DNA of 64,000 bases. It comes from Deltaproteobacteria bacterium. Its GTDB lineage: Bacteria > Myxococcota_A > UBA9160 > UBA4427. Each line of letters opens with the position of its first letter. Within the stretch, counting starts at the first letter, position 1. The stretch is from positions 299,057 through 363,056 of the forward strand of contig PBFW01000009.1 in NCBI GenBank assembly GCA_002719955.1, written 5' to 3'. Below the pieces are notes generated by a model that saw nothing but the letters and a program-made list of their open reading frames with translations, was not told the DNA's origin and ran no database searches. Shown piece after piece: positions 10,449 to 62,879 of this stretch. A program made the position numbers and the translations under genes.

Positions 10449-10545
10449 TTGAACTCCAACGTTTGCAGAAGCTAGCCGACGCCTCCGCCCGTGCGCTACC
10501 ACACGATCCGAATGGGGGACACCCAGCGCCCTCCTGGAGTTCTGA

Positions 10546-11520: not shown

Positions 11521-11903
11521 CAGGGTGCGGAAAGACGCTGATGTTTGTCTTGCCAGGCGATCCGACCGCGCGCCGTGTCGTGCTCTGGTTCAGCTCGGCG
11601 CGCTGACGGTCCCGTTGGTTGTATCGGCGGCCCAGCCGTGCGCGCCCAGCATCTGACATGCGCGCGACACGACACCCGGCCGGATCGCGCGGAACGGATG
11701 AGGTTCGCGTCTGGCCGCGCCCTGCCATGGGTGAGGTGGGGGCGCCCACCAGACGGGACGCCTGGCACGGCAGACAACGGCGTCCTTCCGCGCCCTGCTA
11801 AGAAATTCTACGCCACGCTTCAGCAGGCCTTATTCGCCGAGATCGCTGGGCACGAGCCCCGAGACGCACCGGAGCCGTCCTCGAACTGATCGTCGCCTCA
11901 CCC

Positions 11904-13481
11904 ATGCGGTATTCTGCCGGTATGGCTGCCGTCGAAGGCGCACGACCGACCGGGGACGCGACTTCCCACACTGAATACGGGATCCTCCTCGTCGACGACG
12001 AGGAGGCGATCCTGGAGTCCCTCGAGCTGACGCTCGGGACCGGATACCGGATCTTCACCGCCACGAGCGCCGAGGAAGGTCTTGCCCTCCTCGACCGCGA
12101 GGACATCGCGCTGGTCCTCTCCGACCAGGTCATGCCCGGCATGAGTGGCGTCGAGTTCTTCGAAAAGGTGATCGAGCGCAATCCCCGTGCGATCCGGATG
12201 ATGCTGACCGGATACGCCGACATGCCGGCGCTGATCCGCGCGATCAACGAGGGTCGGATCTACCGCTATATCCCCAAGCCCTGGGAGCCCGACGATCTGC
12301 GAATCGCCGTGAAGCGGGGCCTCGAGGTCTACGAGTTATCGAGCGAAAACGCGCAGTTGGCGGATGCACTCGCCGAGGCGAACGAACGGCTGCGGGCGGA
12401 GAACGTCTACCTGCGGCGCGAGGTCGAGGCGCGATATTCCTTCGACGGGATCATCGGGGACGCACCCGCGATGCAGAAGATCTTCGACGTGACGGAAAAG
12501 GTCGCCCAGACCGATGCGACCGTCCTTCTGACCGGGGAGACCGGGACGGGGAAGGATCTCCTGGCGAGGGCAATTCACTACTCCGGATCACGTAAGGACA
12601 AGAAATTCGTGGCCCAGAACTGCGGGGCGCTGCCCGATACGCTGCTCGAGAGCGAACTCTTTGGGCATAAGCGCGGCTCCTTCACCGGGGCGCACGCGGA
12701 TAAGCTGGGCCTCTTCGAAGTCGCGGATGGCGGGACGATCTTTCTCGACGAGATCGGGGAGACGGAGCCCGGGATGCAGGTGCGGCTGCTGCGCGTGCTG
12801 CAGGACGGTGAGATCCGGCCACTGGGCTCCTCCGATACGCGGAAGGTCGACGTTCGCGTCGTCGCGGCCACGAACTGCGACCTGAAGAAGATGGTCGAGG
12901 ATGGGCGTTTTCGGCAGGACCTCTACTACCGCTTGCGCGTCGTCGAAATCGAGCTGCCGCCGCTGCGCGAACGCAGCTCGGATATTCCGGCGATGGCCCA
13001 CCATTTTCTCGATTCCTCCGCCGCCAAGATGAAACGAGCGTTCGTGGGTTTCTCCAATGCCGCGATGGATCGCCTGGTCGGTTATGACTGGCCGGGCAAT
13101 GTGCGCGAGCTCGCCAACGAGATCGAGCGCACCGCGGCGCTGGCCGGGCCGGATGAGACGATTGGTCTCGATGATCTCTCGGAGCATGTGCGGGGGGCGG
13201 TCGTGGGGAGCGGGACTGCGCTAGGGAACGCTGCCATCGCCCTGGCGAGCGCCCTCGATGCGCCGATCGAGGACTGGGATCTGAATCGCTCCGTCGATCG
13301 CCTCAAACGCAACATGTTGATCCGTGCGATGCGCGAGGCGGGAAGCAAGAGTGGCGCGGCGGAACGATTGGGGATTCCGCGGCAGTCGCTCCAGAAGATG
13401 GTGAAGCGACTGGAGATCACCGAGGCCGACCTCGAAGCGCCCGCAGAGTCCTCGCCCGCCGGCGGTGGGTCGAGTGCTTGA
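11904..13481 (+). CDS. Sigma54-dependent response regulator (REC + AAA+ bEBP + Fis-type HTH)
   Basis: REC domain (ILLVDDEE...LSDQVMPGMSG). Walker A GETGTGKD, GAFTGA-type loop GSFTGA, Walker B IFLDEIGE, R-finger region, and C-terminal HTH AAERLGIPRQSLQKMVKRL. Confidence 0.9.
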   Translation: MRYSAGMAAVEGARPTGDATSHTEYGILLVDDEEAILESLELTLGTGYRIFTATSAEEGLALLDREDIALVLSDQVMPGMSGVEFFEKVIERNPRAIRMMLTGYADMPALIRAINEGRIYRYIPKPWEPDDLRIAVKRGLEVYELSSENAQLADALAEANERLRAENVYLRREVEARYSFDGIIGDAPAMQKIFDVTEKVAQTDATVLLTGETGTGKDLLARAIHYSGSRKDKKFVAQNCGALPDTLLESELFGHKRGSFTGAHADKLGLFEVADGGTIFLDEIGETEPGMQVRLLRVLQDGEIRPLGSSDTRKVDVRVVAATNCDLKKMVEDGRFRQDLYYRLRVVEIELPPLRERSSDIPAMAHHFLDSSAAKMKRAFVGFSNAAMDRLVGYDWPGNVRELANEIERTAALAGPDETIGLDDLSEHVRGAVVGSGTALGNAAIALASALDAPIEDWDLNRSVDRLKRNMLIRAMREAGSKSGAAERLGIPRQSLQKMVKRLEITEADLEAPAESSPAGGGSSA

Positions 13482-13579
13482 CGTCGCTCGAAGCATGAGT
13501 CGCGCGCCCGTCGACCGCAGCCGGAAGTGGCGACGGTTCGAGAATATTTTCACGACGAATCGCAAGTGTGTTGGGTAGA

Positions 13580-14125
13580 ATGACCGCAATGGAAACGCTC
13601 TTCACTTTTCGCGTTGAAACCCCGATCGGTCCCCTTCGCATCGTGAGCAGTGAAAAGGGTCTGGTCTACATCGAATTGGCCCATGCGAACGGTCGTGGCT
13701 TCGCCGGTTGGCAAAAGACCCACGCGCCCGATGCCCAGGTCATCGAGCGACGAACCGCGTGCGACGGCACCATCGAGCAACTCCTCGCATACGCCTCGGG
13801 TGAACGTCGGATCTTCGAGATCGCACTCGATCTGCGCGCGACGGATTTCCAGAAGGCGGTCTACGAGCAGGTCGCGAAAATCGGGTATGGCGAAACGGTT
13901 TCCTATTCCGATATCGCGATCGCCATCGATAAGCCGAAGGCCGTTCGCGCGGTGGGCGCTGCGAACGGAGCCAACCCCATCCCCATCGTCGTCCCCTGCC
14001 ATCGGGTGATCGCACGCGGCGGTGCCCTGCAGGGCTACGCGGGTGGGTTGGACCTGAAGGCGCGGCTGCTCGCGATGGAATCGGCGCTGCCGGAAACACC
14101 CCCGGAGCAAGCGCGGCTTTTTTGA
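13580..14125 (+). CDS. ogt: Methylated-DNA--protein-cysteine methyltransferase
   Basis: Active-site IVVPCHRVI, plus FQKAVYEQVAKIGYGETVSYSDIA and RAVGAANGANPIPI. The ORF opens at GTG 13568. ATG 13580 (MTAMETLF...) is preferred. Confidence 0.9.
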   Translation: MTAMETLFTFRVETPIGPLRIVSSEKGLVYIELAHANGRGFAGWQKTHAPDAQVIERRTACDGTIEQLLAYASGERRIFEIALDLRATDFQKAVYEQVAKIGYGETVSYSDIAIAIDKPKAVRAVGAANGANPIPIVVPCHRVIARGGALQGYAGGLDLKARLLAMESALPETPPEQARLF

Positions 14126-14151
14126 CCAGAGCGTGCCTGGCCACGCTCTGG
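14126..14151. terminator. Hairpin between the convergent ogt and Cys/Met-PLP genes (possible bidirectional terminator)
   Basis: Perfect 10-bp inverted repeat CCAGAGCGTG (14126-14135) / CACGCTCTGG (14142-14151) with a 6-nt loop, directly after the ogt stop. No clear U-tract. Confidence 0.4.
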
Positions 14152-14164
14152 CTGAGGGCTCGTT

Positions 14165-15391
14165 TCAGACCTTTGCGAGGGCTTGCTCGATGTCGGCGAT
14201 GATGTCGTCGGCATTTTCGATGCCGCAGGCGTAGCGGACGAGGCTGTCGGTGATTCCAAGCGCGAGGCGCTCCTGCTTGGGTTTGTCCCAGAACGACATC
14301 GTGACCGGCAACTCGACCAGGCTTTCGACGCCGCCCAGGCTCGGCGCCTGGTAGGGGATCGTCGTCGAGTCGATGAAACGCATCGCCCCCTCGAGATCGG
14401 TGTCGATCTCGAAGGTCACGACTCCGCCGGCGCCACTCATGATGCGTTGGGTGACCTCGAAATCGGGATGGCTCGGCAGGCCCGGATAGAAGACCTTGCT
14501 CACCTTCGGATGCGCTTCGAGATATCGGGCGAGGGCCAGGCCGTTCGCGTTGTGGCGCTCCATGCGGATATCGAGTGTCTTGATGCCGCGCAGTAGAAGC
14601 CAGGCCGCGTGGCTGTCCATGATGCCGCCGAGGACGCCGAGTGCTTTGCGCACAGGCTCGACGAGCTTCCGCGGACCCGTGAGGGTGCCGGCGAGCAGAT
14701 CGTTATGACCCCCCAGATATTTGGTGGCGCTATGCAAGACGAGATCGGCACCATCGTCGAGCGCCCTGTGGTTCACGGGCGTGGCGAAGGTCGAATCGAT
14801 GATCATCTTCACGTCCGCGGCACGGGTCACCTCGGCGAAGGCCGGGACGTCGATCACGCGCAGATAAGGGTTGGTCGGTGACTCGGTGAAGAAGAGCTCC
14901 GTATTTGGTCGGATCGCGGCTTTGAAGGCTTCGAGGTTGCTCGGCTCGATCACCGTTGTCTCGACACCCATGCGCGACAGGTACTGTTCGATGAACTGAC
15001 GGGTTCGTCGATAGCAATCACTCGTCACGATCAGGTGGCTGCCCTCGGGCAAGAGCGCCATGAAGGTCGTGGTGGCCGCGCACATTCCGGACGCGAATAG
15101 GATGCTCTCCTCGCCGCCTTCGAGGGCGCTGAGCTTGCGCTCCACGGCGCGCCAGGTCGGATTGCCATAGCGGCCGTATTCCTCACGGTCGCTCTTGCCC
15201 TCCTGGTAGTCGGTGACCTCCTTGGAGTTGCGAAACCAGAAGGTCGATGTCTGATAGATGGGTGTGGTGATCGCGTTGGCTTCCTGCTGTCGCAGTTCGC
15301 CGGCGTGAACGGAACTCGTCGCGCTTCCGCGATCGCTGGGCTCCTCCGGAAGTTTGGGATCCGGCGGTTGAGAATCGTGATCGGACATCAT
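14165..15391 (-). CDS. PLP-dependent Cys/Met metabolism enzyme (cystathionine gamma-synthase / gamma-lyase family)
   Basis: Contains TPIYQTSTFWF..., ESPTNPYLRVIDV, and IIDSTFATPVNHRALDDGADLVLHSATKYLGGHND (PLP-Lys in SATKY). I chose ATG 15391 (MMSDHD...) with a GAGAGG SD. The ORF extends to 15532. Confidence 0.9.
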   Translation of the reverse strand: MMSDHDSQPPDPKLPEEPSDRGSATSSVHAGELRQQEANAITTPIYQTSTFWFRNSKEVTDYQEGKSDREEYGRYGNPTWRAVERKLSALEGGEESILFASGMCAATTTFMALLPEGSHLIVTSDCYRRTRQFIEQYLSRMGVETTVIEPSNLEAFKAAIRPNTELFFTESPTNPYLRVIDVPAFAEVTRAADVKMIIDSTFATPVNHRALDDGADLVLHSATKYLGGHNDLLAGTLTGPRKLVEPVRKALGVLGGIMDSHAAWLLLRGIKTLDIRMERHNANGLALARYLEAHPKVSKVFYPGLPSHPDFEVTQRIMSGAGGVVTFEIDTDLEGAMRFIDSTTIPYQAPSLGGVESLVELPVTMSFWDKPKQERLALGITDSLVRYACGIENADDIIADIEQALAKV

Positions 15392-15722
15392 GTTGCCTCT
15401 CGGCTGATCGGAGACTGCGCGACTCGGGCCCGTCCCCAATCCGCTGGGTCGAATGCGGATCGGATGCGTTTGTCTGGGCGGAGGGACGGTCAGGGGACCG
15501 GCCAGCCCACACATGGACGAGCGTCGAAACACGAAGTGACGATCATGAAGGGACGCTTAGCAACTCCATGGGAGCTCTTTCCTGCACGATTCGGTGTGGC
15601 CTCTGATGAGAAAGGCCCAACCAGATCCCACTCTATGCGGACGGACTGCTCAGATCGGCCGGCCGAGGAAAGGGTTTGCAAACGTCGGAAATCAACCCCT
15701 TGCGTTCGAACCTGAATTCGCA

Positions 15723-15751
15723 AACCTACGATCGAAGGGGGATCGCGTCAA
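15723..15751 (-). promoter_or_regulatory. Sigma70-like promoter candidate, about 325 nt upstream of the Cys/Met-PLP gene
   Basis: The minus strand reads TTGACG (15751-15746), a 17 nt spacer, then TAGGTT (15728-15723), inside the 424-bp divergent intergenic region. Confidence 0.35.
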
Positions 15752-15815
15752 CTCGTCCCCGCCGGTGAGATTCGCCGTGGCCCGAAGGGCCCGGCCGAAG
15801 GAACGAAGAGATCCC

Positions 15816-16415
15816 ATGCAGAGCGCGAATTCGACAGGTCGCCGCATCCTCGTCTTCTGCGCATCGAGCGGAAGCTGTGAGCCCCATTTTCACGATGCAG
15901 CCGAAGCCCTCGGTCGGGAGATCGCCCGCGCGGGCCATACCATCGTGTACGGCGGCGGGGCGGTCGGTTCGATGGGTGCGGTAGCGGGCGGCGCACTCAG
16001 CGAGGGCGGCGAAGTCGTCGGGATCATCCCCCGCTTCATGCGAGAACTCGAATGGGCGCATCCGGGATTGTCGGAGCTGCGACTCGTCGACGATATGCAG
16101 CAGCGCAAGCGCGATATGCTCGCGACCTCCGACGCGATCGTGACGCTGCCCGGCGGTTCTGGGACCTTCGAAGAACTCTTCGAAGCGATCACATCGAAAC
16201 GGCTCGGACTCTTCCCGAACCCGATCGTGATTCTCAACCAGCGGGGTTTCTACGACCCGCTCTTCGAGCTCCTCGAGAGCAGCGTCTCCGAGCGCTTCAT
16301 GAACGAGGCGCATCTCGAGATGTGGCACTCGGTCGAACGTGTCGCGCAGGTTCTGCCCGCGATCGACGCGGCGGCGCATTGGCCGGACGACGCCGTCGAG
16401 TTTGCGACCCTGTGA
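15816..16415 (+). CDS. LOG family protein (TIGR00730; cytokinin riboside 5'-monophosphate phosphoribohydrolase-like)
   Basis: Contains RILVFCASSG...IVYGGGAVGSMG...IVTLPGGSGTFEELFE...PIVILN, the LOG signatures GGGxGxMG and PGGxGTxEE. ATG 15816 has an AAGGAA SD. Confidence 0.85.
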   Translation: MQSANSTGRRILVFCASSGSCEPHFHDAAEALGREIARAGHTIVYGGGAVGSMGAVAGGALSEGGEVVGIIPRFMRELEWAHPGLSELRLVDDMQQRKRDMLATSDAIVTLPGGSGTFEELFEAITSKRLGLFPNPIVILNQRGFYDPLFELLESSVSERFMNEAHLEMWHSVERVAQVLPAIDAAAHWPDDAVEFATL

Positions 16416-17167
16416 GCCCGCCGCCGGATCGCAAAGCGACTCCCGCCGCGATTCTTTCGACGAGGGCGTTGGTCGACGAACTCGTGAACGCCTTTCCCTT
16501 TCCCGATCCGCGGGGCGCGGATGCTCGCGGCTTGCTCGCCCACGGGGGCGACCTCGCACCCGAACGACTGCTCTCGGCCTACGCCCAGGGCATCTTTCCC
16601 TGGTACGACGAGGATCCGATCCTGTGGTTCTCGCCAGATCCGCGCATGGTTCTGCGGCCGGCAGAACTGCACGTCGGTCGTTCGCTCGCAAAGCGGGAAC
16701 GCGCCGCTCCCTACGCAATCAAGATGGATGCGGCTTTTCGCGACGTGATCCGAGCGTGTCGAGACGTTCCAAGACCGGGTCAGGACGGAACCTGGATCAA
16801 CGAGGACATGATCGAGGCCTATTGTGAATTGCATCGGCTGGGTTTTGCCCATTCGGTCGAGGCGTGGCTCGCGGACGAGCATAGCGGCGGTGAGGAGAGG
16901 CTGGTCGGTGGGCTCTACGGAATCTCGTTAGGCCGAGCCTTTTTTGGTGAGTCGATGTTCGCGCACGCCCCGGATGCCTCGAAGATCGCCTTCACCACCC
17001 TGGTCGGGATGCTCGATGGATGGAATTTCGAATTCGTGGACTGTCAGGTCTGGACGGAGCATCTGGCGCGCTTCGGCGCGACGGAATGGGATCGCGACAA
17101 ATTCCTGGATGCACTCGATCAAGCGATCGAGGGAGAGACGCGCCGGGGTCCCTGGGCTCTCGATTGA
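16412..17167 (+). CDS. aat: Leucyl/phenylalanyl-tRNA--protein transferase
   Basis: Contains LLSAYAQGIFPWYDEDPILWFSPDPRMVL...GTWINEDMIEAYCELHRLGFAHSVE...LVGGLYGISLGRAFFGESMF. GTG 16412 overlaps the LOG stop (GTGA). Confidence 0.9.
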   Translation: MSPPPDRKATPAAILSTRALVDELVNAFPFPDPRGADARGLLAHGGDLAPERLLSAYAQGIFPWYDEDPILWFSPDPRMVLRPAELHVGRSLAKRERAAPYAIKMDAAFRDVIRACRDVPRPGQDGTWINEDMIEAYCELHRLGFAHSVEAWLADEHSGGEERLVGGLYGISLGRAFFGESMFAHAPDASKIAFTTLVGMLDGWNFEFVDCQVWTEHLARFGATEWDRDKFLDALDQAIEGETRRGPWALD

Positions 17168-27619: not shown

Positions 27620-28519
27620 TCAGCGCTTTCGCATGATCTGCCGCCGGGCGCGCTGGTATGCGGTTTCAGTGATGCGCCCCTCGCGCCTCTCCTCGGTGAG
27701 GTCAGCGAGCGCGCGCAGCTGTTCGGGTGTCAGTTGCTCGAGGCTGACGCCGTCCTTCTGGCTGGCCTCGATTTCGCTCTTGGGGACGGGCGACGTCGAG
27801 ATGACCTCGCGTTGCCTTTTCTTGCCCGATGTGGTGCCGGGAAGGCGGAACGCGGATCGGAAGACGTCGTTTTGCCAATCGATCTCGAGATCCTGAACGC
27901 CGGCAAAATAGATCGGGCCTCCGCTCAGGACCCGGAAATCCATCGCCCTGCGATTTCGGATCGGCTCCGGGAGTTTTTTCGTCTCATCGGATTCCTTGAT
28001 GGGCCAGTCCACGCGTCGGAGCAGCAGGTAGAGATGTCCATCGTCCACATAGGCGATGAAGGTCGTCAGAAATTTCTTGTTGAAGATGCCGAGTCGCGCT
28101 TCCTGGCGGGTGACCTTGATGCCGATCTCTTGGTTGGGGTTCGCCTCGGCCAGGCCCTTGGCGAGCAATTCGGCGGTGCGCGGGACCAGGGTCGGGTGAA
28201 AGGCGGGCTGACGAAGCGTGCCCCTGCCCTTTCGAACCGTCTCGACTTCGATCGCGGTCAGGATATGTCGCAGTCTTTGCTGTGAGATGATCGTCGGATG
28301 TTCGTAGCCGCGTTTTTCGACCGAGAAGCCGGTCACCTCTCGCACGAGGTCGACTTCGATCATCTTTCTGTCGACGAGCGAATGGCGCACCGTGCGCGTC
28401 ACACAACCGGGGAGCGAGGCGATCAGAAAGAATCCGATGAGCAGAATGAGGCTGGATCGCCCCTGCATAGGCAGCGGAGTCCAGCCGAAACGAGCCGAAC
28501 GGGTCGGAGTCAGAGGCAT
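27620..28519 (-). CDS. Hypothetical lipoprotein with a C-terminal SHOCT-like helix
   Basis: Lipobox LIASLPGC after a signal sequence. The C-terminus LTPEQLRALADLTEERREGRITETAYQRARRQI is SHOCT-like. The gene starts 4 nt after the feoB stop. Confidence 0.7.
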   Translation of the reverse strand: MPLTPTRSARFGWTPLPMQGRSSLILLIGFFLIASLPGCVTRTVRHSLVDRKMIEVDLVREVTGFSVEKRGYEHPTIISQQRLRHILTAIEVETVRKGRGTLRQPAFHPTLVPRTAELLAKGLAEANPNQEIGIKVTRQEARLGIFNKKFLTTFIAYVDDGHLYLLLRRVDWPIKESDETKKLPEPIRNRRAMDFRVLSGGPIYFAGVQDLEIDWQNDVFRSAFRLPGTTSGKKRQREVISTSPVPKSEIEASQKDGVSLEQLTPEQLRALADLTEERREGRITETAYQRARRQIMRKR

Positions 28520-31928: not shown

Positions 31929-32007
31929 GCCCTCTACTCTACCACTGCCCTCGCGAGAGCGAGGTCTCGGGTCGACGATCCCGACGCCGGCTAGATGGCT
32001 ATTTTCG

Positions 32008-32036
32008 TTGACGTTCTGGGGGGCTACGGCTATTTT
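32008..32036 (+). promoter_or_regulatory. Sigma70-like promoter candidate for the nuo-like operon
   Basis: TTGACG (32008-32013), a 17 nt spacer, then TATTTT (32031-32036), in the gpsA / nuoA-like divergent intergenic region. Confidence 0.4.
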
Positions 32037-32183
32037 GCGGTTTCCTCCGGGATCGGTTCGGCCGCCCGGTCATCAACCCCCCGCTGCCCTTCGGACGGAT
32101 CTCCACGCGATCGTTGCGGCCCTCTTGACGGGTCCAGCGCGTGCGCGCACAGGATCTCGGTGTCCGGCTTCGAGGCGACGGCG

Positions 32184-32567
32184 TTGAGCGTCCCCGGGTT
32201 CGAAACCGAGCTTGATCTGGTGCGGTCGATCCTCTTCGTCGGGTTGACCGTCGTCGCCGTGACGCTGGTGCCCTGCCTCGCCGCGACCCTTCGTCGCGCT
32301 CTCCCGGTCAGGCCGCGCGAGACCCGGCCGCTCGAGCCGGCCTCGTTCGGCCATTCCCAGAAAGCTCGCCGCTCGCCGCGTCACGCGATCCTCCTCCATC
32401 GCGGTCTCGTCGGCGCCCTTTTCGTGGCGCTCGCGGCCCTCTTCTTGATCCCGGCGGCCGCTGCCCTCTCTGCGATCGGTGTCGCGGCGATCCCGTCCGC
32501 GATGGCCTTCGTCCTGCCGACCCTCCTGGTGACGCTCCACGCCCGTCATCGGACGGCCCGCGAATGA
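32184..32567 (+). CDS. Highly divergent NuoA-like membrane protein
   Basis: It has NuoA size and topology (3 TM) if started at TTG 32184. The loop PLEPASFG corresponds to PFESG, and RRSPRHAILLHRGLVGALFVALAALFLIPAA to [26 protein letters not shown]. The stop overlaps the nuoH-like ATG (ATGA). The start is uncertain, and the ORF opens at 31995. Confidence 0.5.
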   Translation: MSVPGFETELDLVRSILFVGLTVVAVTLVPCLAATLRRALPVRPRETRPLEPASFGHSQKARRSPRHAILLHRGLVGALFVALAALFLIPAAAALSAIGVAAIPSAMAFVLPTLLVTLHARHRTARE

Positions 32568-33739
32568 GTGCGCTCACCCTCATGATCGCCTGGCTGGCCA
32601 GCGTTTCGGTGACGCTGATCGGGTGCGCTCTTTTTGAGCGAAATGCGCGATTGGTCGCGCGACCCGGCCGTCCGGAGTTGAATCCGCCCCGGGCGCTCTG
32701 GGGCGGCCAGCCCGAGCGCCCGCCCGCGCATGCGATGAGCGCTCGCGCGCTCGCCGGATTCGCGCGAATCGTTCGCCGTCCGCTCCGCGTCGCTGACCAT
32801 CGTCCCGGGCTTCGACTGCTGGGGCGACTCGGCACCTGTTTCTCGCTCGCGTTCGTTCTGGCGATGTTGCCCTTCTTCGGGACCTGGGGCGGGGGGCCCA
32901 TGGACGCGCCCCTGCTCCTGCTGGACCTTCGACATGGTCTCTCGGCAATCGGTTTTCTGCTCTTGTTGACCTCGTTCGCCCGCATCGCGGTGGGTCTCTC
33001 GGAACGAAATGCCTGGTCGCGCATCGGAAGCGCGGGTCAGGCGAGTCGATCGATCGCCGCGCTCGCGCTGCTGATATTGGTTCTTGCGCCCCTCGTGGTG
33101 GCTTCGGGCTCGCTCCGGCTCCACGATATCGTATTAGGTCAGCAACTCCCGATCGCGCCGATCGGATGGCTGCTCGAGACCTTCGACGGGCCATTCTTCC
33201 AAATCTTGCGAGCATGGCCGATCCCCGCCTGGAACGTCTTCACGCAGCCGCTGACGGCGATCCTCTTCGTTCCGGCGATGGCGCTGCTTCTCGGGAGCCC
33301 GCGCATCGATGATCCGACGAGGGGGTCGCTCGCGGCGGCGGGTGTCGGCCTCGACGCGGCGCCGATGGATCTCTATTGGTCGCGACTCGACGCAAGGCTC
33401 TCGTTCGCACTTGCGGCTGGACTCTTCGTGACACTCTTTCTGGGGGCGGGCTCGATTCCCTTTCTCGAGCCGGAAGAATTCGTGTCGGGGCTCGCGCCCT
33501 TCCTGGGGGAGGTGCTGCCGAAATTGATGGTCCTCGGGCTGCATCTCGTCACCTTCCTGGCGAAATCACTATGCGTGCTCGCGGCGGTTGCGCGGCTGAA
33601 GCGGGTGGCTGCGGTGGGCCGGGTGGATCGAGCGCTTCGCCTGGCAACGCGACGACTGCTTCCGCTGGCCTGGGCGAACCTTCTCCTCGTCGCCGCTTCG
33701 ACGCTCTGGTTTGCTGAATTCATCGGGAGTTCGGGTTGA
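32564..33739 (+). CDS. nuoH: Divergent NADH-quinone oxidoreductase subunit H-like protein
   Basis: Collinear with NuoH. FERNARLVARPGRPELN corresponds to FGERRLLGLFQNRYGPN, DLRHGLSAIGFLLL to DLNIGILFFLM, GSLRLHDIVLGQQ to GSFNMTDIVNSQ, and WNVFTQP to WNVIPQF. The C-terminal LAKSLCVLAAVARLKR corresponds to LKTAFFMMMFILIRASLPR. Confidence 0.8.
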   Translation: MSALTLMIAWLASVSVTLIGCALFERNARLVARPGRPELNPPRALWGGQPERPPAHAMSARALAGFARIVRRPLRVADHRPGLRLLGRLGTCFSLAFVLAMLPFFGTWGGGPMDAPLLLLDLRHGLSAIGFLLLLTSFARIAVGLSERNAWSRIGSAGQASRSIAALALLILVLAPLVVASGSLRLHDIVLGQQLPIAPIGWLLETFDGPFFQILRAWPIPAWNVFTQPLTAILFVPAMALLLGSPRIDDPTRGSLAAAGVGLDAAPMDLYWSRLDARLSFALAAGLFVTLFLGAGSIPFLEPEEFVSGLAPFLGEVLPKLMVLGLHLVTFLAKSLCVLAAVARLKRVAAVGRVDRALRLATRRLLPLAWANLLLVAASTLWFAEFIGSSG

Positions 33740-34245
33740 TGGGTGGTGTGGAACTCGGACTCGGTGTCGCGCTCCTTGCGGCGTTCGCCTCGATCGTGAC
33801 GGGTCGTCATCTGACGCGCTCGATCGTTGCGGGCGCGATCTCCTTGGCTGGACTCGCGCTCGCCCTGACCTCATCCGGCGCGGGTTTCGTCGGCTTCTTC
33901 GTTCTGACCGTCGGGGCATCCGTTCTGGCGACGATCCAGCTTTTCGGATGGATGCTCGTCGATGTCGATCGAGACCATCTCCCTCCCACGGATCGGGTGA
34001 CCGCGATCGCGCGCGGGATCGCGTTCCTCCTGCTGGGCGCGGGGCTCGTTCTGCTCGTCGCGCTCGGACTCGAAGGCGGCGTTTCGAAGCCGATCTCTGG
34101 ATCGGCGCCGATGGCCTCGCCGCGCGAGATTGGTGAACGTTTCTTCGGGGTCTGGCGGGACCTCGCGACGATCTGTGGGATCGCGCTCTCGGCGGGCCTG
34201 CTTGCCACGCTGATGACGCTTCGCGACGATGGGGAGAATCGTTAG
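33739..34245 (+). CDS. nuoJ: NuoJ-like membrane protein
   Basis: About 168 aa with the NuoJ helix pattern. GAGFVGFFVLTVGASVLATIQLFGWMLV corresponds to GAYFAGALEIIVYAGAIMVLFVFVVMML. ATG 33739 overlaps the nuoH-like TGA (TGATG). TTG 33736 is an alternative. Confidence 0.75.
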   Translation: MGGVELGLGVALLAAFASIVTGRHLTRSIVAGAISLAGLALALTSSGAGFVGFFVLTVGASVLATIQLFGWMLVDVDRDHLPPTDRVTAIARGIAFLLLGAGLVLLVALGLEGGVSKPISGSAPMASPREIGERFFGVWRDLATICGIALSAGLLATLMTLRDDGENR

Positions 34246-34248
34246 GCG

Positions 34249-34575
34249 ATGGAAAGCCTGAACGAATCCGCGAGATTTCTGGCCATTGGCGCGACGGCGC
34301 TTTTCTGGATTGGCCTGCTGGGATTGCTCTGGCGTCGGAGTCTGATCGGGATGCTCGTCGGCGTGCTCTTCGGTTGGCTCTCGGTCGCAGTCGCTGGAAT
34401 TGCTTTTGTCGGCTTTCAACGCGACGCGGAGGGAGTCGTCGGAGGCGGGATCTTCGTTCTGTGTGCTGCCCTCGTCTGCGCGCTTCAAGTTGCCTTGGGA
34501 CTTTCTCTCGTCGTCGCGCGCATCGCCCGCCGAGGTACGCTCGACGCGCAAAACGCGTGCCTGCTGGAAGGCTAG
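34249..34575 (+). CDS. nuoK: NuoK-like membrane protein
   Basis: 108 aa, 3 TM. GLLGLLWRRSLIGMLVGV corresponds to GLTGLVIRRNLLFMLIGL, and CALQVALGLSLVVARIARR to AAAEASIGLALLLQLHRR. Confidence 0.8.
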   Translation: MESLNESARFLAIGATALFWIGLLGLLWRRSLIGMLVGVLFGWLSVAVAGIAFVGFQRDAEGVVGGGIFVLCAALVCALQVALGLSLVVARIARRGTLDAQNACLLEG

Positions 34576-34585
34576 GGAGCCGTTC

Positions 34586-36634
34586 TTGACCAATCTGGAG
34601 GAAAGCATCGGTGTTTCGCTGATTCGTTGGATCGCGATTCTGCCCTTTGTGGCCGCGATCACTCATGGTCTCCTGATCGGTCTGGTCCGGGCCAAGATTT
34701 CGGACCGTTCGGTCTGGGCGATTTCGCTCTCCGCGCTCGGCGCCGCCTTCGGGATTTCGGCGCTCTCGATCTTCGACCTCTTCGCCGCGGGTGGATTCGA
34801 GCCGATCCTCGATTCGGTCGGGCCGTGGATCGGTGGGGGAGTCGGGCAGCGCAGCTTCAGTGCAGAGATGACTTTTCAATTCGATCCCCTCTCCGCAGTT
34901 TTCTGCCTGGTGATCACGAGCGTCGCACTCGCCGTCTACCTGCATACGATCGGACTGATAGCGGGTGGACATCTCGACGGCGAAGGCGGCCATCGCAGCT
35001 TTGCCATGCTCGACCTGCTCGTCGGCTCGACGCTCGTTCTCGTGTTGGCGGATAATCTCCTTCTCTTCTTTCTGGGTTGGGCGGGCGTTGGGATCGCGTC
35101 ACAACTCTTCGCTTCTTTCGACTTCGGTGAGCGCGAGGCTTCGCGTGCTGGCGCGACGACATTCGTCATCGGCCGCATCGGCGACCTCGGACTCCTCGCC
35201 GCGATGCTCCTTCTCTTCGACGGTTTGTCCCGGGCGGGTGCGCCGGCGCTGACCTTTCGGGGAATCGAGGCGGCCTTCCGCCTGCTCGAAGGGCAGGGCG
35301 TGCTCTGGCTCTCGTGGACCACGGGCGACGCGCCGCCGCTGCTCGAGGTCGTGGGCTTTGGTCTGGTTCTCGCCGCGCTGACCAAATGCGCTCAGCTCCC
35401 GCTTCATTTCTGGCTTCCGGCGGCGGCCTCGGGGCCGATCTCGGCGAATGCGCTGATGCAGTCCTCGACGACGGTGATCGCGGGGATCTATGTATTGTTG
35501 CGCTTCTCTTTTCTGCTCGAGACCGTCCCGGACTCGATGAGGATGTTGATCGTGGCGGGTAGCACCACGATGTTGCTGGCGAGTTTCGCGGCGACGACCC
35601 AACTCCACCTGCCTCGACTGGTCGCGTTCACCACCTCGAGTCTGCTCGGACTCGTGATCGTCGGAATTGGGATCGGCGCCTACTCGGCCGCCACATTCCT
35701 GATCCTGACCCACGCCTTCGTGAAGGCCCACCTGATTCTAGCGATGGGGCTCGTCATCACGACGCTGAAGGGCGAGACGGATCTTCGCCGAATGGGTGGG
35801 CTGGCTCAGCGATTGCGGTGGACTCAGGGAATCTTTGGCCTCGGCTGTTTGGCTCTGATCGGCCTCCCCCCCTTCGCGAATTTCTTTCCGATCGAAGAGC
35901 TGCTCGCGTTTCTGTGGATCTCCGGGCGACCGGAGAGCAGTCTGGTCGCGGCGACGATCCTGGTGAGTCTGGGCCTGCTCGCTTTCGCCGTCGGCCGCGC
36001 GTTCTTCCTGATCTTCTGGGGCAATCTGCGCCCGAGCGGCCCGGTGGAAGATCGGCTTCGGGATCCAACGGGTTGGCGACAGCACAGCCTGACCGGGCTG
36101 GCGGTCATGACTCTTGCGGCGGGCGGGCTCTCGGCGTCACAGTTCTGGGGGGATCGGTTAGGCATCCCCACATCCGAGATGGATTCGATCGGCCATTTCC
36201 TGGTGGCGTCGATCCCGGGCTCTCCGGACCCCGAAGTCTCGGGCATCGAACGCTGGACCCTGATCGGCGCCCTGGTCGTGAGCTTGCTCTGCGGTCTGCT
36301 CGTCGCCGGATTGCGTTATGCGCGTCGAGGCTATCGCGGGGAATCGAAGCAGGAGGTGATTCGTTTCTCCATGAACGCGATGCGGGAGATGTTCTTCATC
36401 GAGCAGGCCTATACGATCCTCTTGGTTCGGCCGCTGCGGCGTCTCTCCCAGTTCGCACTCGTCGGTGGAATCGAATATCGACTGATCGATCGAGTGGTGG
36501 TCTCCGGCGGATCGGGGCTCATTCGTCGCATGGTGTGGAGCGTGCTGCGTCGCCTTCAGAACGGGCAATTGCAGAGCTATGCGTTGCTCGGAATGCTCAC
36601 GGTGCTTGTCATCGTGACGTGGATGGTCGTCTGA
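34586..36634 (+). CDS. nuoL: NuoL-like antiporter-type subunit (682 aa)
   Basis: VLVLADNLLLFFLGWAGVG, TKCAQLPLHFWLP, and THAFVKAHLIL are all collinear with NuoL. TTG 34586 lies 7 nt after a GGGAG SD. The ORF opens at 34400 but overlaps nuoK. Confidence 0.9.
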   Translation: MTNLEESIGVSLIRWIAILPFVAAITHGLLIGLVRAKISDRSVWAISLSALGAAFGISALSIFDLFAAGGFEPILDSVGPWIGGGVGQRSFSAEMTFQFDPLSAVFCLVITSVALAVYLHTIGLIAGGHLDGEGGHRSFAMLDLLVGSTLVLVLADNLLLFFLGWAGVGIASQLFASFDFGEREASRAGATTFVIGRIGDLGLLAAMLLLFDGLSRAGAPALTFRGIEAAFRLLEGQGVLWLSWTTGDAPPLLEVVGFGLVLAALTKCAQLPLHFWLPAAASGPISANALMQSSTTVIAGIYVLLRFSFLLETVPDSMRMLIVAGSTTMLLASFAATTQLHLPRLVAFTTSSLLGLVIVGIGIGAYSAATFLILTHAFVKAHLILAMGLVITTLKGETDLRRMGGLAQRLRWTQGIFGLGCLALIGLPPFANFFPIEELLAFLWISGRPESSLVAATILVSLGLLAFAVGRAFFLIFWGNLRPSGPVEDRLRDPTGWRQHSLTGLAVMTLAAGGLSASQFWGDRLGIPTSEMDSIGHFLVASIPGSPDPEVSGIERWTLIGALVVSLLCGLLVAGLRYARRGYRGESKQEVIRFSMNAMREMFFIEQAYTILLVRPLRRLSQFALVGGIEYRLIDRVVVSGGSGLIRRMVWSVLRRLQNGQLQSYALLGMLTVLVIVTWMVV

Positions 36635-36635
36635 C

Positions 36636-38279
36636 GTGGCGTTCAGTCCGGCGGAGCATCTGATCCTGATCGTTGTGGCGCTGCCGGCACTCACGGCCTT
36701 CGGGCTGATGGGGACCGGACTCGTGCTCGGGCAGGTCGGAATTCCCACGCTTCCGGAGGCGCTCTGGCGGGCGATCGGTCTCACCGCCGCGTTCATCACC
36801 TTTGCCGTGATGCTCTTCATCGCCACGTCTGAATTCGATCCCGAGGTGTTGGGTCTGCAACAGATCGCCTCCTATGCCTGGTCGGAATCTTTCGGTGCGA
36901 AATTCCTGCTCGGAGTCGATGGAATCGGTCTGTGTTTCATGTTATCGACGACGGGAATCGTGCCGCTGGCGATGTTGTCTGCGAAAGGCGAACCGCATAA
37001 CTCCACACGTTCGTGTGTGCTCGTTTGCCTGCTGCTCGAAACGGCGCTGCTCGGGGCCTTGGCCTCTGCGAATCTGCTTTCGTTCATCTTCTTCTGGGCG
37101 GCGAGCTTGATTCCGATCCTGCTCTGGATGGGGCGCTGGGGCGGACTCGGCCGAGGTCGAGCGGCTTCGCGTATCTGGACGATCGAATCGATCGGTCTGG
37201 CCGCTCTGCTCTTCGTCGCCTTCGTTCTCCACGACTCGACCGCGGTTCAGCTCGGGATTCCGACCCTGGACCTGATCGAAGTGGGTGCTGACGCGGGGCG
37301 CAGTCTTCTGGATGTCGAGATCGCCGAGGCGGATCAATGGATCCTCTTCCTGGCGATGGTCTTCGCGTTCTCGACGCGATTGCCCATCGTGCCGCTTCAT
37401 TTCTGGCTCCCGGCAGCACACGCGTCCGCGCCGACCGGATTGTCCGCGCTCCTGGCCACGGGATTCGTCCAGACTGCGGCGATCGGCCTGCTGCGTTTCG
37501 CGCTGCCACTCTTCCCGGACGCTGCGGTGGCGGCTGGACCGGTACTCTCGGTGTTGGGGATCACCGCACTGGTCTACGCGTCGCTGATCGCCCTCGTGCA
37601 GAAGGAGCTCAAGCACCTCGTTGCGTATTCGTCGGTGGGCTATGCGGGCTTTGCCCTGTTTGGGATCTCGACGCTGAACGTCCAGGGGGTGACCGGTGCG
37701 GTCCTTCAGCTCTTGGTCCACGGTCTGGCCACCGCGGGACTCTTCATGTTGATCGGCTTCCTTTCGATCCGGCGGAATACGACGGAAGTCGTCGCCTTCG
37801 GCGGCCTCGCCAAGCCGATGCCGGTCTGTGCGTTCTTCTTTGGATTGATGGTGCTGTCGCTGATGGGATTGCCCTTGCTGGGTGGCTTCGTGGGTGATCT
37901 CTTCGTTCTCCTGGGCAGTCTCGAAACGAGACGCGAACTCTCGGTCATCGCGCTAATCGCGATGGTCGTTTCCGCATCCTATCTGCTCTGGGTCCAGCGT
38001 CGGCTCTTTCTCGGGCCCGTCGATGAGCCCGCGAATCGGGGGCTCATCGATCTCGACCGGATCGAGCGGGCCATTCTGCTCACGCTGGCCATCCCGATCG
38101 TCGCGATCGGCGTTTATCCGAATCCGGTCCTGCGGCGAGTCGAACCGACGGTGCTCGAACTTCTCTATCAGATGGAGCGCAGGTCGATCCGGACCGACGA
38201 GGAGAAACTCGAATCGGAGACGGAGAGCGAGCTCGTTCGACTCGACTCCGCAGGACTCGAGCCGGGAGGGCGGCCATGA
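36636..38279 (+). CDS. nuoM: NuoM-like antiporter-type subunit (547 aa)
   Basis: LPIVPLHFWLPAAHASAPT, AAIGLLRFALPLFP, LVAYSSVGYAGF, and LVHGLATAGLFML are collinear with NuoM. GTG start 1 nt after the nuoL stop. Confidence 0.9.
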   Translation: MAFSPAEHLILIVVALPALTAFGLMGTGLVLGQVGIPTLPEALWRAIGLTAAFITFAVMLFIATSEFDPEVLGLQQIASYAWSESFGAKFLLGVDGIGLCFMLSTTGIVPLAMLSAKGEPHNSTRSCVLVCLLLETALLGALASANLLSFIFFWAASLIPILLWMGRWGGLGRGRAASRIWTIESIGLAALLFVAFVLHDSTAVQLGIPTLDLIEVGADAGRSLLDVEIAEADQWILFLAMVFAFSTRLPIVPLHFWLPAAHASAPTGLSALLATGFVQTAAIGLLRFALPLFPDAAVAAGPVLSVLGITALVYASLIALVQKELKHLVAYSSVGYAGFALFGISTLNVQGVTGAVLQLLVHGLATAGLFMLIGFLSIRRNTTEVVAFGGLAKPMPVCAFFFGLMVLSLMGLPLLGGFVGDLFVLLGSLETRRELSVIALIAMVVSASYLLWVQRRLFLGPVDEPANRGLIDLDRIERAILLTLAIPIVAIGVYPNPVLRRVEPTVLELLYQMERRSIRTDEEKLESETESELVRLDSAGLEPGGRP

Positions 38280-39754
38280 ATCCGGTCTTCTATCCGGCGG
38301 TCGGGGCGCTCTTCGTGCTCGCGCTCGATCTGATGGGCAGCGCGGGGAGGCCCGATGAGCATGGACCGCGCAGGGCGGCGCTCTCGGGGATTCGGCTCGG
38401 GGCGGTGGCGCTCTTTTCGTTGGCTGCGGTGGTCTTCTCGTTGCGGGGCGGAGATCGTCGCTCTGGCGACGAACTCCTGAGCCTCGATTCATTCGGTGTA
38501 TTCGGCCTGGGCTATATCGTTTTCGCCGGCCTCTTGGTTCTGAGTCTCTCCCTCACACATTTTGGGATGGCGCGCTCGCGTCCGACCGAACCGATCGCCC
38601 TCCTGCTCTTCGCCTGGGCGGGCTCGATGATCGCGATAGCGACCGATCACCTGCTGGTGCTGCTCGTGGCGATCGAGTTGGCGTGGCTACCCATGATCGC
38701 GCTGATCGCGATCGATTCGCGTCGGCTCTCATCGAGCGAGTCGAGTCTCAAGGCCTTCTTCGCGCATGTTTTCGCGAGTCTGATCTTCGCGCACGGGATC
38801 GCCTTCGTGTTCGCGGAGAGCGGGCGTCTGGATCTCGCTGCGCTGTCGGGGAGGGGTGTCGAGGGGAATCTCCTTTTCGAGGTCGGGTTCACGCTGGTGC
38901 TGCTGGGATTGATCGCTCGCGCAGCGATCGCGCCCTTCCATCCCTGGTCACCCGACGTTCACGAGGGCGCACCGAGCTTCGTCACCACGCATATCGCGAC
39001 AGTGGCTCAGGCGACGACCTTCTTCGTTCTGTTGCGGATCCTTCACGCCATTCCCGTCGTCGAACTCACCGACGCTGAGTCGTTAGGTGTTCGGGTTCCT
39101 CAGCTGCTCTCCCTGCTCGGCCTGTTGGGTCTGCTCTGGGGGCACGCGATGGCCCTGGTTCAGGTCGGTCTGCGTCGGCTGGTGGGGTGGCTCGGAGTGG
39201 GGCAGATCAGCTTTCTCACGCTCGCATTGGTGGAAGCCCGTGGAGAGGGCGCCGAGGGGCTGCTGCTCGGTTTGATCGCATCGGGTGTCGCGATCACCGG
39301 CATCATGGCCACATTCAGTTCACTCAGTCATCACGAGCGCGCCTGTGAACACGTGGGTGACCTGGCGGGAATGATGCGCAGGAGTCCGATCCGCGCTGTG
39401 CTGCTCGGGATCTTCTTTCTCTCGCTCGCTGGCTTTCCGGGGACCTTCGGCTTCGTCGCACGTTTCAAGATCCTCGCCGCGCTCGAACACGGAGGGCATC
39501 GCTGGGAGCTCGTCGCGGGACTGGCTGCGACGGTGCTCGCGCTGACAGCGGTGGGTCGCCCCTTGCTCGAGATGTCGCGATCGACCCGGGACGGCCGCGA
39601 GGGCAGCCGTGCGCTTTCGAACGAGCAATTTGTATTGGCGATCTGTGGTGCGATCATCGTCTACTTCGGGGCTATGCCCGTGATGGGTGAAACAGCGCTC
39701 GCGGGCCAGCTCATGATCTGGATCGAGCGGGCGGTCGCGTCGCTGCGCTTCTGA
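38276..39754 (+). CDS. nuoN: NuoN-like antiporter-type subunit (492 aa)
   Basis: LLVAIELAWLPMI, AIAPFHPWSPDVHEGAPSFVT, and LSLAGFPGTFGFVARFKIL are collinear with NuoN. The ATG overlaps the nuoM stop (ATGA). Confidence 0.9.
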   Translation: MNPVFYPAVGALFVLALDLMGSAGRPDEHGPRRAALSGIRLGAVALFSLAAVVFSLRGGDRRSGDELLSLDSFGVFGLGYIVFAGLLVLSLSLTHFGMARSRPTEPIALLLFAWAGSMIAIATDHLLVLLVAIELAWLPMIALIAIDSRRLSSSESSLKAFFAHVFASLIFAHGIAFVFAESGRLDLAALSGRGVEGNLLFEVGFTLVLLGLIARAAIAPFHPWSPDVHEGAPSFVTTHIATVAQATTFFVLLRILHAIPVVELTDAESLGVRVPQLLSLLGLLGLLWGHAMALVQVGLRRLVGWLGVGQISFLTLALVEARGEGAEGLLLGLIASGVAITGIMATFSSLSHHERACEHVGDLAGMMRRSPIRAVLLGIFFLSLAGFPGTFGFVARFKILAALEHGGHRWELVAGLAATVLALTAVGRPLLEMSRSTRDGREGSRALSNEQFVLAICGAIIVYFGAMPVMGETALAGQLMIWIERAVASLRF

Positions 39755-39852
39755 TCGGGTCCTCGCAGCCCTTCCGGCCCACAGGTCGGGTATCCTCGGC
39801 GGCGTAGCCGGCCGCTTCCATCCCCGGTCGCATCCAGGGGAGGGCAATTCAC

Positions 39853-40268
39853 ATGCTCGGTCTGATTGGCCTCGCGATCGTGGGTACGAGCATTTTTCTG
39901 TGGTTTTGGCTGATTCAGCAGGTCGCGGTGCCCCGCAGCCGTGCACCCTATATGGTCGGCTTCGTCGGGGGGGCCTGATCGGCCTCGTCGCCGTTTTCCA
40001 GGGGGGGGCGGTGTCGATGATCAGCGGTGGCCTCGCTGCTTTCGCAGGCTTCATGTTCGCTGCGCTGCGACTGCAGAGTGCGCAAAAGCCGAATCAGCCG
40101 GCCATCGGTGTGGGCGCGTTGATGCTCGCGGTGTCGGCACCGGACGAGAATGGTGTCGACTTCGACCTGTCGACGCGGGGGGAACTGTTCGATGGGTCGA
40201 TCAAACGGATGATTATATGCTTCGGAGCCAGCCGGGCCGGGTGCTCTCGGCGATCAACGAAAATCTGA
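39853..40268 (+). pseudogene. Disrupted membrane-anchored peroxiredoxin/BCP-like gene (frameshifted and truncated)
   Basis: ATG 39853 gives MLGLIGLAIVGTSIFLWFWLIQ...MVGFVGG and then stops. Adding one G to the G7 run 39967-39973 would join it to GLIGLVAVFQGG...AFAGFMFAAL...IGVGALMLAVSAPDENGVDFDLS...KRMIICFGASRAGCS, which is the N-terminus of a redoxin fold. That frame ends prematurely at 40268. Confidence 0.35.
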
Positions 40269-40326
40269 CGAGCACGGGGTAGGAAGAAGCGGGGCTGCAC
40301 GGCTATGGAAGGATGGATCCGCGGAA

Positions 40327-60855: not shown

Positions 60856-61008
60856 TACGAGCGTGGAGCCAATCGGATCACCCTGAGCATGAGGCTGGAC
60901 CGAGCCGGAGAACACGAGAACCGGCCGGATCGAGCCAAGTCAGCCACCGAGAGTACAGCCGAAGCGAGCCTCTAGAAGACGCGCTCCGGATCCCGAGGAG
61001 AACGAGAC

Positions 61009-62721: not shown

Positions 62722-62879
62722 TCATGTTCGGCCTGCGCGCTCCCCTGGCTGGAGGCGCGCATGGCCTTGATGGGGCCGCATCGGAGGCGGATCCCGAAGA
62801 GCCTGCACGCACGACGCGCGCTGCAAATAGACCGGGACAACCGAATGGGGAGTCCCGAGAGACGAGACGGAGAAAACTC

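Follow-up and report, generated by a model that had tools for sequence, protein, structure and literature searches.

Why should a bacterium keep an operon that encodes only the membrane arm of complex I, in which nearly all of the residues that define the enzyme have been replaced? The membrane arm is normally among the most conserved machines in biology, and its coupling to the redox arm is still debated. The question is raised by a cassette of seven tightly coupled, same-strand genes derived from nuoA, H, J, K, L, M and N, located at 32160-39754 (+ strand) of a 64-kb window, as we call the whole stretch of DNA analysed here (forward strand, positions 299,057-363,056 of contig PBFW01000009.1, assembly GCA_002719955.1). 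It comes from a Deltaproteobacteria bacterium of the UBA9160/UBA4427 lineage (Myxococcota_A). A preliminary description of the window had pointed to the missing Q-module and N-module genes. The real oddity is a different one: wholesale loss of catalytic residues under continued purifying selection, with living intermediates. We consider it fairly probable that the cassette is a reduced, remodelled and selectively maintained descendant of the lineage's own complex I locus, which no longer pumps in the canonical way and has taken on a different role.

The genes of the cassette are the following.

32160-32567, + strand: NuoA-derived subunit, 135 amino acids, GTG start as called on independent contigs; three hydrophobic segments.
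32564-33739, + strand: NuoH/ND1-derived subunit, 391 amino acids; matches PF00146 (64 bits); fold kept.
33736-34245, + strand: NuoJ/ND6-derived subunit, 168-169 amino acids, starting at TTG 33736 or ATG 33739; matches PF00499 (29 bits).
34249-34575, + strand: NuoK/ND4L-derived subunit, 108 amino acids; matches PF00420.
34586-36634, + strand: NuoL/ND5-derived subunit, 682 amino acids, TTG start; full length, including the C-terminal extension; matches TIGR01974.
36636-38279, + strand: NuoM/ND4-derived subunit, 547 amino acids, GTG start; matches TIGR01972 (344 bits).
38276-39754, + strand: NuoN/ND2-derived subunit, 492 amino acids; matches TIGR01770 (200 bits).

The number, strand and packing of these genes are as the preliminary description had them, and were confirmed from the sequence. 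Genes A and H share ATGA (32564-32567), H and J share TGATG (33737-33741) and M and N share ATGA (38276-38279), while the gaps are 3 nt between J and K, 10 nt between K and L and 1 nt between L and M. The beginning of the cassette had to be moved, since position 32008, given as its start, is where the -35 hexamer of the promoter begins, and independent gene callers put the start of the NuoA-like gene at GTG 32160. The statement that all seven products are recognisable Nuo homologues holds for H, K, L, M and N, which profile searches in Pfam and NCBIfam assigned to complex I families. The NuoL, NuoM and NuoN proteins all match PF00361 (Proton_antipo_M), their best NCBIfam models being TIGR01974 (346 bits), TIGR01972 (344 bits) and TIGR01770 (200 bits, under the cut-off of 332). 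At the sequence level NuoL retains the C-terminal lateral-helix extension, as it covers positions 2-630 of the 630 of TIGR01974 and aligns with canonical NuoL through the C-terminus. NuoJ stays below threshold (the gathering score of PF00499, Oxidored_q3, is 33.2 bits), and the first open reading frame (ORF) has no Pfam or NCBIfam match at all. We nevertheless derive this first ORF from NuoA, because hhalign matches it to the canonical NuoA of relatives (loci L038, L039 and L034; E=1.5e-5 over 98 columns), because of its position in the operon, and because the first gene of the intermediate relatives matches PF00507. By hhalign, the ancestry of NuoJ is supported with E=5.6e-5 and that of NuoK with 96% probability. 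Homologues of the seven subunits of a complex I membrane arm are found together here, in the order A, H, J, K, L, M, N.

The origin of the cassette can be read from the same syntenic slot in related genomes. In L038 (GCA_029261835.1) and L039 (GCA_050618075.1) the slot holds nuoA-E-F-G-H-J-K-L-M-N, with fully canonical residues. In L037 (JGI 3300023202 Ga0255825_1000085, 8012-17110) it holds nuoA-G-H-J-K-L-M-N, without NuoE and NuoF, and in L036, L040 and L041 it holds nuoA-H-J-K-L(-M-N), as in the family of loci to which the window belongs. In all members of this series (L036-L041) nuoB, C, D and I are missing at the locus. The cassette is a reduced piece of the lineage's split nuo locus, and what sets the window's branch apart is that E, F and G disappeared step by step. 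The nearest complete operon that we found is that of L034 (1238-14472, Planctomycetota), with the order A-B-C-D-E-F-G-H-J-K-L-M-N. In this metagenome-assembled genome (MAG) and in that of L035, also Planctomycetota, nuoI is absent between nuoH and nuoJ, the stop of H overlaps the start of J, and NuoG is short (531 amino acids); their nuoI must be encoded elsewhere.

This series changes the weight of what is missing. The NuoB, C, D, E, F and G proteins of L034, used as tblastn queries, gave no matches in the 64-kb window, nor in any family locus up to ~10 kb from the cassette; NuoD/B-like hydrogenase-type ORFs are likewise missing from the window. A search with the NuoG of L037 for peripheral-arm genes in cassette-bearing MAGs returned only the NuoG of canonical A-EFG-H..N loci, in other assemblies. 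The lack of room for nuoB/C/D/I had first been taken as an argument for an unusual system. This argument fails, as the canonical locus of L038/L039 likewise lacks B, C, D and I; their absence here is therefore ancestral to the clade and not diagnostic for the existence of a Q-module. The gene order of L038/L039 also matches the alternative that the preliminary description had itself raised, namely that such a split arrangement is usual in related genomes. Its view of a membrane-only module, rather than a slice of a nuo operon, is right in so far as no Q- or N-module genes lie nearby, the promoter is the cassette's own and conserved, and the residues are not canonical; but by descent the module is such a slice, the remainder of a split nuo cluster after E, F and G had gone.

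The nuo genes have evolved much faster than their flanks. Comparison of the window with L038/L039 gives identities of 67-70% for FeoB, 68% for GpsA and 58-63% for LPG synthase in the flanks, whereas the cassette proteins reach 21-44% overall (NuoH 23-24%, NuoL 35%, NuoM 41-44%, NuoN 30-32%). The canonical proteins of L038 are closer to those of the Planctomycetota operon (36-48%) than to those of the window.

The replaced residues were identified by aligning the window family beside canonical (L034, L035, L038, L039) and intermediate (L037, L036, L041, L040) loci. The loss is graded: motifs are intact in the canonical loci, partly lost in the intermediate ones, and most completely lost, with fixed replacements, in the window family. 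At the quinone cavity and the E-channel, the NuoH motifs ERK..QDR.GPN, LQ..AD..K, SYEV, AE..R.PFD.PE.E.EL..GY.TEYSG and SEF/AEY are all present in L038/L039 and all absent from the window family, in which the quinone-loop and E-channel glutamates of NuoH are replaced. The protein has a conserved Arg-rich loop between transmembrane helices (TM) 1 and 2 (32636-32779, residues 25-72). NuoA has lost the ECG loop motif and the FDVE of TM2 (E. coli D79/E81) and carries a family-specific Arg-rich loop, FG.S..A.RSPRH (32346-32384, residues 63-75). NuoJ has lost the VYAGA of TM3 and shows an invariant QLFGWMLVDVDRDHLP motif at 33937-33996. In NuoK, TM2 contains no acidic residue in any of the 25 sequences (Leu, Gly, Val or Phe stands at the E36 position), and 23 of them have Gln in place of E72. 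No E-channel carboxylate and no quinone-cavity loop of NuoH (TM5-6 and TM1-2) has escaped replacement. The intermediate L037 is already without NuoA FDVE, NuoK E36, the TM5 Glu of NuoL and NuoM, and NuoM K234 and K265, while its NuoG (526 amino acids) keeps all Fe-S cysteine and histidine ligands.

The proton relay of the antiporter-like subunits has fared little better. In NuoL, all 22 sequences have Ala, Thr or Val in place of the TM5 Glu (E144), the TM12 Lys (K399) is Ile, Leu, Val or Gln, and the TM8 His is Gln in 19 of 22; the TM7 Lys (K229), the equivalent of the HAFFK Lys in TM11 and the TM12 Glu are kept. In NuoM, E144 has become Ala, K234 Arg (20/21), K265 Gln (20/21) and E407 Asp (21/21). 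In NuoN, K217 is replaced by Arg, K247 by Gln and K395 by Arg, each in all 20 sequences, and the E133 equivalent is kept. The set of TM5 Glu, TM7 Lys, TM8 Lys/His and TM12 Lys/Glu that characterizes these subunits is not conserved here. These columns are not alignment artefacts, since the neighbouring motif residues are identical (GWEGVG versus GWAGVG; GFVGEF versus GFVGDL), and the E. coli sequence contexts agree with the primers printed in PMC13073174. In E. coli, K247A or K395A alone lowers complex I activity to ~10%, and conservation of these Glu/Lys pairs extends to MrpA and MrpD (PMC13073174). A change from Lys to Arg as an effect of base composition is ruled out by canonical relatives of equal or higher guanine-plus-cytosine content, as L038 (64%) and L039 (70%) keep the lysines and the window has 64%.

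What replaced these residues is not random. Dozens of polar residues have become newly invariant in the family, among them those of the NuoJ QLFGWMLVDVDRDHLP motif, of the Arg-rich loops of NuoH and NuoA, and of two NuoN motifs. One of the latter is SLTHFGMARSRP.EPIALLLF (38549-38611); the other, the His/Cys/acid-rich SLSHHERACEHVGDLAGM (39320-39373, residues 349-366), stands in place of an unremarkable canonical loop and might form a metal-binding or redox-sensitive site, judging from its composition. As to the context of this motif, feoAB adjoins the cassette in all relatives, but equally adjoins the canonical nuo locus. In comparisons within the family, most pairs give a ratio of nonsynonymous to synonymous substitution rates (dN/dS) of 0.09-0.25 for L, M and N, with a maximum of 0.44 for L027/L031, a pair prone to frameshifts; the values for H, J, K and A are 0.16-0.5. 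The ORFs are intact and their start/stop overlaps are kept in at least 20 species, at dS of ~0.5 to >1.5. A strong acceleration was followed by present-day purifying selection on all seven genes, and pseudogenisation is ruled out on dN/dS.

For NuoH the fold has outlived the sequence. Against all PDB chains, a phmmer search with the protein gave E=0.008 only, while the family profile matched NdhA at 2e-13. The AlphaFold model (pLDDT 83, pTM 0.85) has NdhA, NuoH and ND1 as top PDB matches, with TM-scores of 0.6-0.8 at 13-21% identity, and the 50 listed structural matches all belong to complex I or NDH-1, none to a hydrogenase. The TM5-6 loop, formerly that of the quinone, is predicted to be disordered (pLDDT <50, residues 254-263).

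The cassette also has a promoter of its own, within the following feature, which was delimited by a consensus scan and by alignment of the family loci.

32001-32056, + strand: conserved non-coding block with a promoter-like site.

The sigma70-like site of the preliminary description, TTGACG-17-TATTTT at 32008-32036 (predicted -35 TTGACG at 32008-32013 and -10 TATTTT at 32031-32036), was recovered by the scan (one site versus 0.0 expected) and is conserved across family loci. A pattern search found the element TTGAC(G/C)..GGGG.CTACGGCTA.T.T in 14 of 14 family loci, and conservation runs on through the leader in 13 aligned loci. The consensus of the ~55-nt block is ATTTCGTTGAC(G/C)..GGGG.CTACGGCTA.T.TTGCG..T.CCCT(T/C)CGGGA; it was seen at 32001-32056 of the window and in L008, L010-L013, L015, L017, L019, L021, L024, L028 and L031. 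Besides the promoter hexamers and a G-rich spacer, also conserved, the block has a hairpin of the UUCG/UCCG type, which in the window is a small TCC-UCCG-GGA stem-loop (32043-32052) at the predicted 5' end of the transcript. It is conserved much more strongly than the adjacent NuoA-like coding sequence. Because the spacer between the hexamers is conserved as well, the leader may be the site of a regulator in addition to a promoter. The element is not present upstream of nuoA in L034-L041, and an Rfam search of the conserved leader gave no matches.

The arrangement is not peculiar to one assembly. Ten contigs, which stem from different marine samples and were built by different assemblers, encode the NuoH-like protein in identical gene context. 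When one genome per species was scanned, the family turned up in 23 GTDB species representatives, all of them uncultured Myxococcota MAGs. Wherever a locus spans all seven positions, it contains the seven genes, in unchanged order. Mis-assembly, which the preliminary description had named as a possible refutation, is ruled out by this recurrence on 10 independent contigs and in 23 species-level MAGs. The search with the NuoH family profile gave at least ~104 close relatives; the profile has only 583 matches among 1.84 billion representative proteins, and ~60 representative clusters (50% identity) are without any canonical ND1 motif. Sources are Tara Oceans contigs (marine), and relatives occur also in a Danish soil survey and in activated-sludge MAGs. 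Some MAGs labelled 'Spirochaetaceae bacterium' (L019, L020, L026, L030) or 'Enterobacteriaceae bacterium' (L032) carry the same cassette as the Myxococcota MAGs. Where their flanks could be read (L003/L004, L020 assembly) the feoAB-gpsA neighbourhood is the same, and one isolate is named HK-STAS-MYXO-51; these labels are almost certainly wrong. Frameshifts interrupt NuoM/NuoN in two assemblies (L003:14255-17636; L027:14189-17083). L003 has an almost identical, intact counterpart in L004, and L027 was assembled from long reads ('tig'); the frameshifts are probably sequencing errors and not marks of pseudogenes.

The flanks were largely as first described, with gpsA divergent upstream and, downstream, selB convergent together with serS, according to gene calls and family matches. 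The 'decayed redoxin' (ORF 39900-40282) has no Pfam or other family match, and this label could not be confirmed. The 570-nt spacer between nuoN and selB (39755-40326) holds only short ORFs without family matches (41 and 83 amino acids in the gene calls of other contigs), and is absent in most relatives, in which selB starts ~20-100 nt past nuoN. Upstream, synteny is shared by the whole family and by more distant relatives: LPG-synthase/sulfatase, a hypothetical gene, feoB, feoA and gpsA, the last divergent from nuoA. The hypothetical protein (27620-28519, - strand; ~280-300 amino acids, no Pfam match) always lies between feoB and the LPG-synthase/sulfatase gene, in all loci, and is only 29-38% identical between the window and canonical or intermediate relatives, far below its neighbours. 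A functional link of the cassette to selB/serS or feoAB was discarded, as the same neighbours adjoin the canonical nuo locus, and L008, L038 and L039 have other genes downstream. Further away, at 60163-63455 (+ strand), the window encodes COX2, COX1 and COX3 of an aa3-type haem-copper oxidase; its remainder is housekeeping. These genes imply an aerobic respiratory chain, which needs a quinone-reducing entry enzyme; none was found in the 64-kb window.

We propose the following course of events. In the ancestral state the nuo genes would already have been split, with nuoA-E-F-G-H-J-K-L-M-N at the locus beside gpsA and feoAB and with nuoB/C/D/I elsewhere. On the branch to the window the N-module genes would have been lost from the locus, E and F first and G next, and then or later the seven membrane subunits would have evolved very fast and lost nearly all complex I-defining residues. 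To judge from the genes themselves, the seven proteins are probably made and used, because folds and order are kept, translation is coupled, the promoter is conserved and selection is purifying. They would form a complex shaped like the membrane arm that is neither a canonical redox-driven proton pump nor an Mrp-type antiporter, and that probably does something new. Its charge network would be fixed, with Arg-Glu pairs, Gln at the former titratable Lys and Ala at the former Glu, and the newly invariant cytoplasmic Arg-rich loops of NuoH and NuoA would sit where the Q-module formerly docked. Given the fixed charge network and these loops, one may speculate that the complex is less an ion pump than a static scaffold, or a platform on which a different partner docks. 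Of this account, the descent from the lineage's complex I locus, the stepwise reduction, the residue losses, the acceleration and the present selection are shown by the data above; the assembly of the subunits, the loss of pumping and the new role are inferred.

Several points weigh against such a loss of pumping. Genes for NuoB, C, D and I may lie elsewhere in the genome, and their products may dock on this arm; the presence in L037 of a NuoG with intact ligands beside degenerate membrane subunits indicates that residue loss and a peripheral-arm subunit can coexist. The strong conservation of the cytoplasmic loops of NuoH and NuoA in the family would equally fit a co-evolved Q-module. Some ion transfer might persist through the two lysines and the TM12 acid of NuoL, the TM5 Glu of NuoN and the Asp at E407 of NuoM. 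The derived position of the family comes from a crude neighbour-joining tree, in which its branch is long.

These points are taken up by the explanation that the locus is part of an ordinary split complex I. The cassette would then be the sole membrane arm, would be completed by nuoB/C/D/I (and perhaps E/F/G or another input module) from elsewhere, and would still reduce quinone and move ions through its diverged residues. The split layout is the norm here, since the canonical relatives' locus is also without B, C, D and I, and the Planctomycetota loci L034 and L035 are likewise without nuoI between H and J. L037 and the conserved NuoH and NuoA loops can be read in the same way, and the aa3-type oxidase calls for an electron entry point. 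However, every quinone-cavity and E-channel motif of NuoH and NuoA and both NuoK glutamates are gone, and the NuoM and NuoN lysines are all replaced, although a single mutation of such lysines cripples E. coli complex I and canonical relatives of similar base composition keep them. The cassette also evolves much faster than its flanks, contrary to the usual behaviour of ND1. We therefore regard an ordinary split complex I as rather unlikely.

A stand-alone secondary ion transporter, that is, an Mrp-like Na+(K+)/H+ antiporter or a pump linked to the proton-motive force that arose from the complex I membrane arm, seems improbable to us. The partial NDH-1 operons of marine actinomycetes have been suggested to play such a role (PMC3314556, PMC6676996), a precedent that fits the marine source of the Tara Oceans contigs. 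The three PF00361 antiporter-like subunits are the most strongly constrained in the cassette, and NuoL keeps its TM7 and TM11 lysines and TM12 Glu, as NuoN keeps its TM5 Glu. Yet the Glu/Lys pairs common to MrpA/MrpD and NuoL/M/N are replaced here by non-titratable Arg, Gln and Ala, genes of the MrpB/E/F/G type are missing, NuoH and NuoA have no homologue in Mrp, and relatives also live outside the sea, in the Danish soil survey and in activated sludge. A non-functional relic, decaying since the loss of the peripheral arm and not yet deleted, would account for the progressive loss of catalytic residues from L038/L039 through L041/L037/L036 to the window family, and for the frameshifted copies in the two assemblies L003 and L027. 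It is largely refuted by seven intact ORFs with kept overlaps in at least 20 species at dN/dS of 0.09-0.5, by replacements that are fixed and not random, by the new invariant motifs and by the conserved promoter; the frameshifted L003 has an intact, near-identical twin in L004, and L027 stems from a long-read assembly. We consider such a relic extremely improbable.

A broader proposal goes with the reading of a remodelled complex I locus, and we put it forward tentatively, with slightly more doubt than belief. It is that of a widespread 'pseudo-complex I', present in at least 23 species and ~60 clusters at 50% identity: an autonomous, non-pumping assembly of seven subunits, kept by selection after the redox arm, the quinone site and the relay had gone. 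Candidate roles would be a scaffold, a docking platform on the Arg-rich NuoH and NuoA loops, or a transporter that uses the new fixed Arg, His and Cys. If this were true, the series A-EFG-H..N, A-G-H..N, A-H..N would document a respiratory enzyme turning into something else. The family is in any case a natural experiment, in which the arm survives without residues thought to be indispensable and graded intermediates are found in close relatives. An autonomous complex would mean a new use for the complex I/Mrp architecture, and 'nuoAHJKLMN' annotations, including the 'marine adaptation' partial operons, could not be read as proton or sodium pumps; this is relevant wherever the metabolism of a MAG is reconstructed and complex I is scored from the number of nuo genes. 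If, on the other hand, the arm still works with a Q-module, the canonical Lys/Glu relay would be dispensable, which would be mechanistically even more surprising.

Among known systems, the nearest form is the split nuoA-E-F-G-H-J-K-L-M-N locus of L038/L039, with which the cassette has in common the slot, order, orientation and tight coupling, the homology of seven subunits and the ND1 fold. It differs by lacking E, F and G, by the replacement of the quinone-site, E-channel and proton-relay residues, and by an identity of 21-44% as compared with 58-70% for the flanks.

Enzymes of 11 subunits without NuoEFG generally keep the canonical membrane residues. Those of cyanobacteria (NDH-1), Campylobacter and Desulfitobacterium have likewise lost the NADH-oxidising module (PMC11238625, PMC4453560), and the H subunit of the cassette best matches NdhA and NuoH, at 13-21% identity. 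These enzymes keep nuoB/C/D/I in the operon and remain redox-driven pumps, whereas the cassette and its flanks are without B, C, D and I, and no nuoA-B-C-D-H-I-J-K-L-M-N cluster is found. The group-4 [NiFe] hydrogenase relatives (Mbh, Mbs, FHL, Ech) have NuoH-like and antiporter-like subunits in common with the cassette, but are always encoded with NuoB/D-like hydrogenase subunits; the window has none, and no large and small subunit genes adjoin the cassette. The Mrp antiporter resembles the cassette in being membrane-only, with PF00361 antiporter-like subunits and a NuoK-like subunit and without a redox module. Mrp has MrpB/E/F/G and neither NuoH nor NuoA, whereas genes derived from these two belong to the cassette, which encodes no other small subunits and hence no MrpA-G set; and the Glu-Lys pairs that are conserved and required in MrpA/MrpD (numbering of PMC13073174) are Ala, Arg or Gln at the corresponding positions of the cassette.

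The seven-gene, membrane-only set had seemed not to be a described system, but it has already been reported in actinomycetes and Bdellovibrionota (PMC3314556, PMC6676996, PMC13147790). Our literature search for bacterial membrane arms that lack the peripheral arm or have degenerate residues found only these reports of partial operons: nuoA-(hypothetical)-H-J-K-L-M-N in Salinispora, Streptomyces and Kocuria, described as 'marine adaptation genes' (PMC3314556, PMC6676996), and a nuoAHJKLMN cluster in Bdellovibrionota (PMC13147790). They are biochemically uncharacterised, and the papers assume a working H+/Na+ pump, without considering the residues. The actinomycete clusters differ from the cassette by the extra hypothetical gene between nuoA and nuoH and by their coexistence with a complete 14-gene operon. 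According to the published descriptions, the partial NDH-1 operons have the same seven-gene content and order as the cassette and likewise lie separate from Q- and N-module genes.

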